A DNA stretch of 22,357 nt from a virus: the UHGV virus genome UHGV-0078062. One strand, 5' to 3'. The translations under genes were made by a program, and so were the position numbers. Shown piece after piece: positions 20,984-22,357 of this stretch (position 1 is the first letter of the stretch; the number at the start of each line of letters is the position of its first letter). The notes below the pieces were generated by a model. That model had not been told where the DNA came from, did not search any database, and saw nothing but the letters and a program-made list of their open reading frames with translations.

Positions 20984-22141
20984 TCACTCATCCTTTTCAT
21001 CAATCCAGTCCGCCCACCACTGCATCATTTCTCTGCGCTTATCGAGATACTGAGCGTGGTTGTAAATTCCACGCACAGAACCGCCGTTGGCATGTGCAAG
21101 TTGCACTTCAATAGCATCAGCAGGCCATTCGTGCTCGTTCATAATCGTGCTGAATTCATGCCTGAATCCGTGACCGCTTTCCAGACCTTCATAGCCGATT
21201 TGTTTGATCACAAGCAGTACAGCGTTCTCGCAAATTGGCTTCTTCTTATCGTTGCGCCCGGCAAAAACAAACTCTGATACTGGTTTGGTGATTGAGCTTA
21301 GCGTAGTGAGAAGTTCAACCACCTGGTCTGACATAGGAACCACATGAATTTTGCGTCCCTTCATCACACTGGCGTCGATGGTGATAATCCTGTTTTCAAA
21401 ATCGACGTTCTTCCATAGCATGGAACGAAGCTCTTTCGTTCTTAGGGCTGTGTAGCGTAAAACTTTTGTCGCAATGAGCGATACGATACTTCCTGAAAAT
21501 GTTGCCAGTGCTTTGTTGAATGCAGGGATCTGGTCTGCTGGAAGGAACGGGAAGTTCTTCTTGCGGTATCCCTTCATGGCGTCAGCAAGGTCAGGTGCCG
21601 GGTTATATTTAGCCCTACCAGTGACAATAGCGTAACGGAAAACCTCGCCGCATCTTCTGCGGGCTTTGTTGGCTCGCTCCATTGCACCGCGATCTTCAAA
21701 TCTGCGGATTACTTCCAGCAGTTGCATCGGCTCAATATCCTGAATTTCAAGGCCGCCGATGATGGGTAAAATGTCGTCATCAAACATTTTTGCAAGTTCA
21801 TTTGCATAGCCTACTGACCAGACTTGCTTCTTGTGCTCGTACCATTCCTTGTAAATGGCGCTAAAGGAATTGTTGTTAGACGAAGTCTTTTTCGCTTTTA
21901 CCGGATCGATACCAACCGAGATGTCTTTCCTCGCGGTCCATGCTTTATCCCTTGCCTCCTGCAAAGTCATAAGCGGATATTTTCCGACGGTCAGGATTTT
22001 CTCCTTACCGTCAATCTTGTAGCGAAGCTGCCATACCTTTTTCCCGGATACAGGGACATAAAGGTACAGGCCATTACCATCGAGAAGGCGGTATGGTTTT
22101 TCTTTCGGCTTTGCTGCTTCAATCTGCTTAACGGTGAGCAT
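20984..22141 (-). CDS. intS: Tyrosine integrase, P4-type (IntS-like)
   Basis: N-terminal arm-binding motif MLTVKQIEAAKPKEKPYRLLDGNGLYLYVPVSGKKVWQLRY and C-terminal catalytic region (HGFRHEFST...VRGIYNHAQYL); I place the start at ATG 22141 (385 aa) by analogy with E. coli IntS; the ORF track extends to GTG 22177 (397 aa), which is an alternative. Confidence 0.9.
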   Translation of the reverse strand: MLTVKQIEAAKPKEKPYRLLDGNGLYLYVPVSGKKVWQLRYKIDGKEKILTVGKYPLMTLQEARDKAWTARKDISVGIDPVKAKKTSSNNNSFSAIYKEWYEHKKQVWSVGYANELAKMFDDDILPIIGGLEIQDIEPMQLLEVIRRFEDRGAMERANKARRRCGEVFRYAIVTGRAKYNPAPDLADAMKGYRKKNFPFLPADQIPAFNKALATFSGSIVSLIATKVLRYTALRTKELRSMLWKNVDFENRIITIDASVMKGRKIHVVPMSDQVVELLTTLSSITKPVSEFVFAGRNDKKKPICENAVLLVIKQIGYEGLESGHGFRHEFSTIMNEHEWPADAIEVQLAHANGGSVRGIYNHAQYLDKRREMMQWWADWIDEKDE

Positions 22142-22302
22142 GGGTAAAAATCCGGTGGGTAAAATTATTTTATCCACTTTTTACCCGTCATGGAGTGCGG
22201 CTGTCAACGATCTGACGCGAACCATTACGAACTGTGAATCTACGGAAGGCTTGATATTCAGGGGATTTTGCGGACTGGTACGGATGGGAGCGAACTGATA
22301 AA

Positions 22303-22357
22303 TGGTGTCCCCTGCAGGAATCGAACCTGCAATTAGCCCTTAGGAGGGGCTCGTTAT
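22303..22357 (-). tRNA. argW: tRNA-Arg (anticodon CCU), 3' 55 nt including CCA; 5' end beyond the window
   Basis: Reverse complement reads ...ATAACGAGCCCCTCCTAAGGGCTAATTGCAGGTTCGATTCCTGCAGGGGACACCA: anticodon stem AGCCC/GGGCT, loop CUCCUAA (anticodon CCU), T-arm GCAGG-TTCGATT-CCTGC, acceptor plus ACCA; matches my recollection of E. coli argW. Confidence 0.85.

Follow-up and report, generated by a model that had tools for sequence, protein, structure and literature searches.

Genes and sites of the integration module

The window is the whole stretch of DNA analysed here, 22,357 nucleotides of the virus genome UHGV-0078062. At its right-hand end lie an integrase gene, a short spacer and the 3' part of a tRNA gene. 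The minus strand is a single open frame from 20984 to 22177 in the ORF list, and the gene of an intS-type tyrosine integrase, recognised by its ORF, by Pfam and by homology, occupies 20984-22141 within it (385 aa; ATG at 22141, stop at 20984-20986). A 397-aa product starting from the GTG at 22177, as given by the mechanical ORF list, was rejected because that codon lies upstream of the published intS transcription start and all annotated homologues are 385 aa long.

Pfam identifies an arm DNA-binding domain (PF13356, E 3e-25), a central, core-binding domain (PF22022, E 5e-28) and a catalytic domain (PF00589, E 5e-39, profile positions 2-170 of 172). These are all three domains of a heterobivalent phage integrase, and they place the protein in the IntS/P4-like group. 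Residues 87-197 also match the core-binding domain deposited as 'CPS-53 integrase' (PDB 2kj8, E 6e-70). The protein is identical to Sf6 Int at 377 of 383 positions (98%) and to K-12 IntS, which is active in vitro (PMC2951348), at 381 of 385 (99%). The four differences from K-12 IntS, at residues 86, 114, 380 and 384, fall outside the putative motifs of the catalytic R-K-H-R-H-Y set as read by eye, namely HGFRH (324-328), LAHANG (about 348-353), Y360 and the first Arg of TALRTKEL, near residue 234. At the DNA level the identity to K-12 intS is only 96.1%. The presence of 45 nucleotide changes against 4 amino acid changes indicates purifying selection. Over the int-attL segment, DNA identity does not go above about 97% in any of 5,426 complete E. 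coli genomes. By its sequence, the window int is a distinct allele that appears to be under strong purifying selection.

Between the integrase ATG and the att core lies the P' arm of attL (22142-22301, minus strand), a phage-derived spacer close to that of K-12 attL and continuous with the int-side arm of Sf6 attP. Counted up to the tRNA gene, the gap is 161 bp (22142-22302). It is identical to attL of the K-12 prophage KplE1 at 157 of 161 positions, the exceptions being 22248, 22236, 22226 and 22216, and the TorI sites, P' sites, -35 and -10 boxes and start sites are the same in both. For the K-12 coordinates we assumed an offset of 1978, presumably arising from MG1655 version changes, and checked it by the ATG and by the 'T' and 'A' start landmarks. 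The published K-12 coordinates (PMC2951348) were then mapped so that the intS ATG falls at 22141.

Four arm-type sites are crowded against the start of the gene, and their P' numbers are taken from their order. The copy of GGGTAAAA at 22142-22149 (plus strand, inverted relative to int) abuts the ATG and is probably P'4; a second inverted copy, at 22157-22164 (plus strand), is probably P'3. The arm-type-like GGATAAAA at 22168-22175 (minus strand) is probably P'2; it overlaps the transcription start and is invariant in the window, K-12, Sf6 and strain 573. The GGGTAAAA copy at 22179-22186 (minus strand) corresponds to P'1 and overlaps the -10 box. In the K-12 study TAAA was mutated in all four P' sites, and P'1 likewise overlaps the -10 sequence (PMC2951348). 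The window contains five copies of GGGTAAAA, against 0.42 expected, and three of them lie within 45 bp upstream of int. On the other arm of attP, GGGTAAAA occurs twice in 114 of 117 IMG/VR loci among the matches listed.

The promoter PintS overlaps these sites. Its -10 box, TAAAAA (22178-22183, minus strand), has the sequence given in PMC2951348 and is separated by an 18-nt spacer from the -35 box TTGACA (22202-22207, minus strand). Positions 22171-22172 (minus strand) are homologous to the two intS transcription starts (T and A, K-12 2464536/7), which were mapped experimentally in K-12 (PMC2951348) and are placed here by homology. A scan of the window for consensus promoters did not pick the published PintS and returned a weak overlapping match instead, with counts no higher than in shuffled sequence; it missed PintS because it demands a terminal T, which the -10 box TAAAAA does not have.

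Two blocks of sites for the excisionase TorI complete the arm. The I3-I4-I5 block at 22209-22236 (minus strand; K-12 2464472-2464499) reads CACAGTTC gt AATGGTTC gc GTCAGATC, with the expected 8+2+8+2+8 layout and intact pentamers GTTCG, GTTCG and GATCG. The I1-I2 block at 22272-22299 (minus strand; K-12 2464409-2464436) consists of ATCAGTTC and ACCAGTCC separated by 12 nt, and its pentamers GTTCG and GTCCG are intact. The TorI pentamers, the promoter hexamers and the arm-type sites are all free of the four spacer substitutions. Three of these change the initial base of an 8-mer, in I3, I4 and I5 respectively, and the functional phage Sf6 has two of the three as well. To judge from these matches, the spacer carries the complete set of putative module sites, that is, five for TorI and four P' sites, with an overlapping PintS.

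A first, sequence-only reading of this DNA had proposed an IntS-like integrase, co-oriented on the minus strand with a tRNA gene about 160 bp away, and arm-type sites in the interval. The 381/385 identity to K-12 IntS and the gap of 161 bp bear out the first two proposals. The third is upheld by the four GGGTAAAA-type sites in 22142-22186, which match the four P' sites mutated in PMC2951348.

The att core and the argW gene

The att core, where crossover takes place, is ATGGTGTCCCCTGCAG at 22302-22317, and it was recognised by comparison with Sf6 attP and the KplE1 core. It consists of the last 15 nt of the tRNA gene argW plus 1 nt downstream. The core is identical to the annotated core of Sf6 attP (Sf6 18099-18114), and its minus strand (22317-22302) is an exact match to the published 16-nt KplE1 core CTGCAGGGGACACCAT (PMC2951348). 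No second copy was found in the window with up to 3 mismatches allowed.

The window ends inside argW, which encodes tRNA-Arg(CCU). The 3' 55 of its 75 nt are present (22303-22357, minus strand), as recognised by Rfam and by complete identity to K-12 argW over these 55 nt. The Rfam tRNA model matches 22306-22357 on the minus strand (32.7 bits, E 4e-5) and is flagged as 5'-truncated. ARAGORN, run on the window, did not report a tRNA, since the window end truncates the gene. Weak Rfam matches to plastid ycf2 and FMN were taken as chance; they score far below the gathering thresholds and overlap the tRNA or the int coding sequence.

The full tRNA is available from longer contigs. The window integrase is present on four metagenome contigs of 20-50 kb, and two of these, L004 and L005, were fetched from different assemblies in ENA, one of them labelled human gut metagenome. 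The source samples are ENA ERZ914932 / ERR589442 and ERZ27261989. Both are 100% identical to window 10984-22357 and continue beyond the window end. On L004, ARAGORN reports a complete 75-nt tRNA-Arg with anticodon cct (L004 2234-2308), which is identical to K-12 argW. The contig runs 2.25 kb past the window, and yfdC and mlaA follow the full tRNA; this flank is 99.5-99.6% identical to E. coli chromosomes.

The nature of the junction becomes clear when the four possible forms of the site are compared. In the empty attB of ATCC 8739, the core has dsdC-side host DNA on its left and the tRNA body on its right. In attP of Sf6, the int arm is on the left and the xis arm on the right. At attL of K-12, strain 573 and ST12468, the int arm is joined through the core to the tRNA body, and the window has the same arrangement. 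At attR of these three strains, host DNA lies to the left of the core and the xis arm to the right. Matches to the phages Sf6, IME10, HF4s, N7 and Dewey all end at 22317, the inner edge of the core.

The right-hand boundary of the prophage is therefore fixed to the base, with phage DNA running through the core at 22302-22317 and host DNA beginning at 22318, so that only the 40 bp at 22318-22357 are host-derived. The host locus can be named as E. coli argW, between yfdC and the dsdC or csc genes, and the prophage can be oriented within it. This helps annotation and the design of PCR assays for attP and attB.

The sequence-only reading fares well in this comparison. The prophage-host junction that it proposed is what the window contains, namely int arm, core and host tRNA body. 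The tRNA-Arg(CCU) identity holds on the full-length gene, the argW-like insertion site is confirmed by the yfdC-argW context on contigs identical to the window, and the junction gives the orientation of the prophage. The comparison with Sf6 attP that it recommended yields an exact core. It had placed the core in the spacer, overlapping the tRNA 3' end; the overlap stands, but only 1 nt of the core is in the spacer and the rest is inside the tRNA gene.

Nature of the prophage and its relatives

Taken as a whole, the region is almost certainly the attL junction of a P22-like (Lederbergvirus; Sf6/HK620/CUS-3-type) prophage in E. coli argW, put there by an IntS-type tyrosine integrase. A late operon running from terminase to tailspike is followed by a conversion gene, int and att, which is the P22-like order. 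This assignment is based on the ORF map, Pfam gene calls on L004 and co-linearity with Sf6, Sf101, CUS-3, Kapi1 and ST12468. The tailspike carries the P22-type head-binding domain PF09008.

The arrangement of argW, attL and intS is well studied and already known. Experiments on K-12 KplE1 have taken the module apart, accounts of it exist for HK620, Sf6 and CUS-3, and the window therefore contributes no new biology. The module is common to KplE1, HK620, Sf6, CUS-3 and many other prophages (PMC2951348, PMC3509656), and a tRNA gene followed by a co-oriented integrase is the commonest tRNA-integrase layout in a published survey (PMC2951348). At a threshold of at least 80% coverage of a 1.66-kb query, intS lies next to argW in 1,857 of 5,426 complete E. 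coli genomes, about a third.

The closest studied system is KplE1 (CPS-53) of E. coli K-12, described by Panis, Ansaldi and co-workers (PMC2951348, PMC3509656), in which argW, attL and intS stand at one end and torI and attR at the other. It shares with the window the tRNA, the 16-nt core and an IntS protein that is 99% identical. KplE1 is a 10.2-kb remnant with gtr-type glucosylation genes beside intS, whereas the window has an acyltransferase gene after int and a full P22-like late operon. Sf6 (AF547987; Casjens et al. 2004, as annotated in the record) has the same order of tailspike, acyltransferase, int and attP, a 98% identical Int, the same core and a near-identical int-side arm; in this unintegrated phage, the core is followed on its right by the P arm. 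The argW prophages of ST12468 and strain 573 have the same argW junction, and at their far junction the core repeat lies beside torI. These prophages and the phages HK620, CUS-3, Kapi1 and IME10 have mosaic, P22-like genomes. At about 97% identity, the complete E. coli prophages cover 80% of the window; CUS-3, Kapi1 and IME10 match 45-55% of it at 94-96%, and HK620 matches 26% at 92.5%. The tailspike and O-antigen-modification cassettes of the window differ from those of ST12468, strain 573, HK620, CUS-3, Kapi1 and IME10.

The module is also similar to that of phage lambda in having a heterobivalent tyrosine integrase with arm-type and core-type sites and in its requirement for a recombination directionality factor (RDF, the excisionase) and IHF. 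It differs from lambda in that int is transcribed away from att, from its own promoter inside attL, and is uncoupled from the RDF gene at the opposite end, with negative autoregulation (PMC2951348).

The identity and layout of every sequence element are directly visible in the window. Binding, autoregulation and directionality are expected to follow the experiments on the near-identical KplE1 module, from which we infer the following course of events (PMC2951348, PMC3509656). The phage attP would bring a 16-bp copy of the argW 3' end, and IntS together with IHF would exchange strands within the cores of attP and attB. The tRNA gene would be rebuilt from 60 nt of host DNA at its 5' side and 15 nt of phage DNA at its 3' side, and the displaced host copy of the core would come to lie at the far end of the prophage, beside the excisionase gene (torI/xis). 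Once the prophage is integrated, the promoter of intS would sit inside attL. IntS bound at the P' arm-type sites, of which P'1 overlaps the -10 box, would repress its own gene, and TorI bound at I4 and I5, which adjoin the -35 box, would also repress intS. During excision, TorI bound to attL would direct IntS to recombine attL with attR.

The junction could be genuine and the prophage nevertheless a decayed remnant, unable to excise, of the kind represented by KplE1/CPS-53, rather than intact and inducible. The left half of the prophage is absent from the window and from the contigs, and argW relatives range from 10-kb remnants (K-12) to partly deleted prophages (strain 573, with pseudogenes in the early region). 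We nevertheless consider decay unlikely. The ORFs in late-gene positions (terminase, portal, coat, ejection proteins and tailspike, assigned by co-linearity with annotated relatives) are open across 22 kb, as is int, and the gene calls on the contig show the tail-end genes and int intact. The 45 nucleotide changes in int, with only 4 amino acid changes relative to K-12, also speak against decay, and even KplE1 still excises (PMC2951348).

An attL junction is favoured over a free phage genome with its attP, or a phage-borne piece of tRNA, in which there would be no host junction at all. It is true that attP in this phage group includes 15-16 nt of argW and that a further 16-nt T-arm piece lies near xis. 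However, identity to Sf6 attP ends at 22317, beyond which the window has the tRNA body and not the P arm, and the identical contigs go on into the full tRNA, yfdC and mlaA; contig continuation and the four-way comparison have already refuted this explanation, which retains practically no probability. A chimeric join made during metagenome assembly, to be considered in view of the metagenomic source and of argW-proximal sequence common to many strains, is just as improbable, since the window is matched up to its end at 100% identity by two independent ENA assemblies and by an IMG/VR contig, the ENA contigs continue identically into host DNA (the IMG/VR contig for 44 nt), and the same join occurs in those 1,857 complete E. 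coli genomes.

The far junction and the mosaic genes of the prophage

With a single core copy in the window, the other junction lies outside it, as the sequence-only reading had predicted. L004's contig reaches no more than about 0.8 kb beyond the left-hand end of the window, and the identical IMG/VR contig is only 21 kb long. The window itself stops inside the tRNA. The left-hand stop of L004's contig suggests an assembly break at DNA with further copies in the host, for example sequence of the lambdoid lysis or nin region. The same prophage was not found complete among the complete E. coli genomes, which reach at most about 97% identity.

Related complete argW prophages show what such a junction looks like. 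In these, a 15-16 bp segment of the tRNA 3' end is duplicated beside torI. The K-12 repeat is beside torI, and its 15-nt copy is annotated as the pseudogene pawZ. In strain 573 a 15-bp copy lies 73 bp away from torI. ST12468, the one intact example, has its two cores 38,284 bp apart, and they enclose a complete P22-like prophage between dsdC and argW; the order of tailspike, acyltransferase, intS and argW is that of the window, except for the strand of the acyltransferase gene. By analogy with these complete prophages, the missing junction is predicted about 16 kb beyond the left-hand end of the window, as a copy of TGGTGTCCCCTGCAG followed by ACATCT... and torI. The sequence expected there would be TGGTGTCCCCTGCAGACATCT, preceded by dsdC-side or csc-side E. 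coli DNA. The 21-mer that spans the attP/attR junction has at least 120 matches in IMG/VR.

A second piece of argW is associated with the excisionase end of the module. The 16-nt GGAATCGAACCTGCAA abuts the core in the T-arm of the tRNA (window 22317-22332), and a second copy occurs inside the phage, just upstream of torI/xis and 293 nt past the core, in Sf6, K-12, strain 573 and ST12468. These copies are located at 18408-18423 in the Sf6 record (L003), 13267-13282 in L002, 9430-9445 in L008 and 11276-11291 in L006. Among the matches listed, 111 of the 117 IMG/VR loci with enough flanking sequence have an exact second copy; among these matches it lies 293 nt past the core in 110 of 117 loci and 294 nt past it in one more. 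The module thus has 31 nt from the 3' half of argW, in two parts with the P arm and the RDF gene between them. Since GGAATCGAACCTGCAA contains the TorI-like pentamer GTTCG, the copy could be a functional site. That it serves as an operator for torI autoregulation or as a synapsis element, and is not a relic of a longer ancestral attP, nonetheless seems to us rather unlikely on this sequence evidence.

The genes to the left of int have a mosaic composition. A 332-aa acyltransferase of the Acyl_transf_3 family is encoded at 19741-20739 (minus strand), between tailspike and int, in the position occupied by oac in Sf6. It has no significant sequence similarity to Sf6 Oac. The GC content of this island is 28-32%, compared with about 46-49% for int. 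The gene is probably a swapped O-antigen-modification cassette.

The tailspike gene (17446-19740, plus strand) shares with Sf6 only the N-terminal head-binding domain of about 118 aa, which is 88% identical; the rest is unrelated, and it has a lower GC content of 35-40%. Its true start is probably an ATG located 16 codons inside the listed ORF, because the identical contigs call a 748-aa product. The late operon (1-16832) finds its best phage match in Klebsiella phage phiKp_30 (LC768498.2), with 71% coverage and 95.7% identity. The Klebsiella label is unexpected for a genome that is otherwise typical of P22-like phages of E. coli and Shigella.
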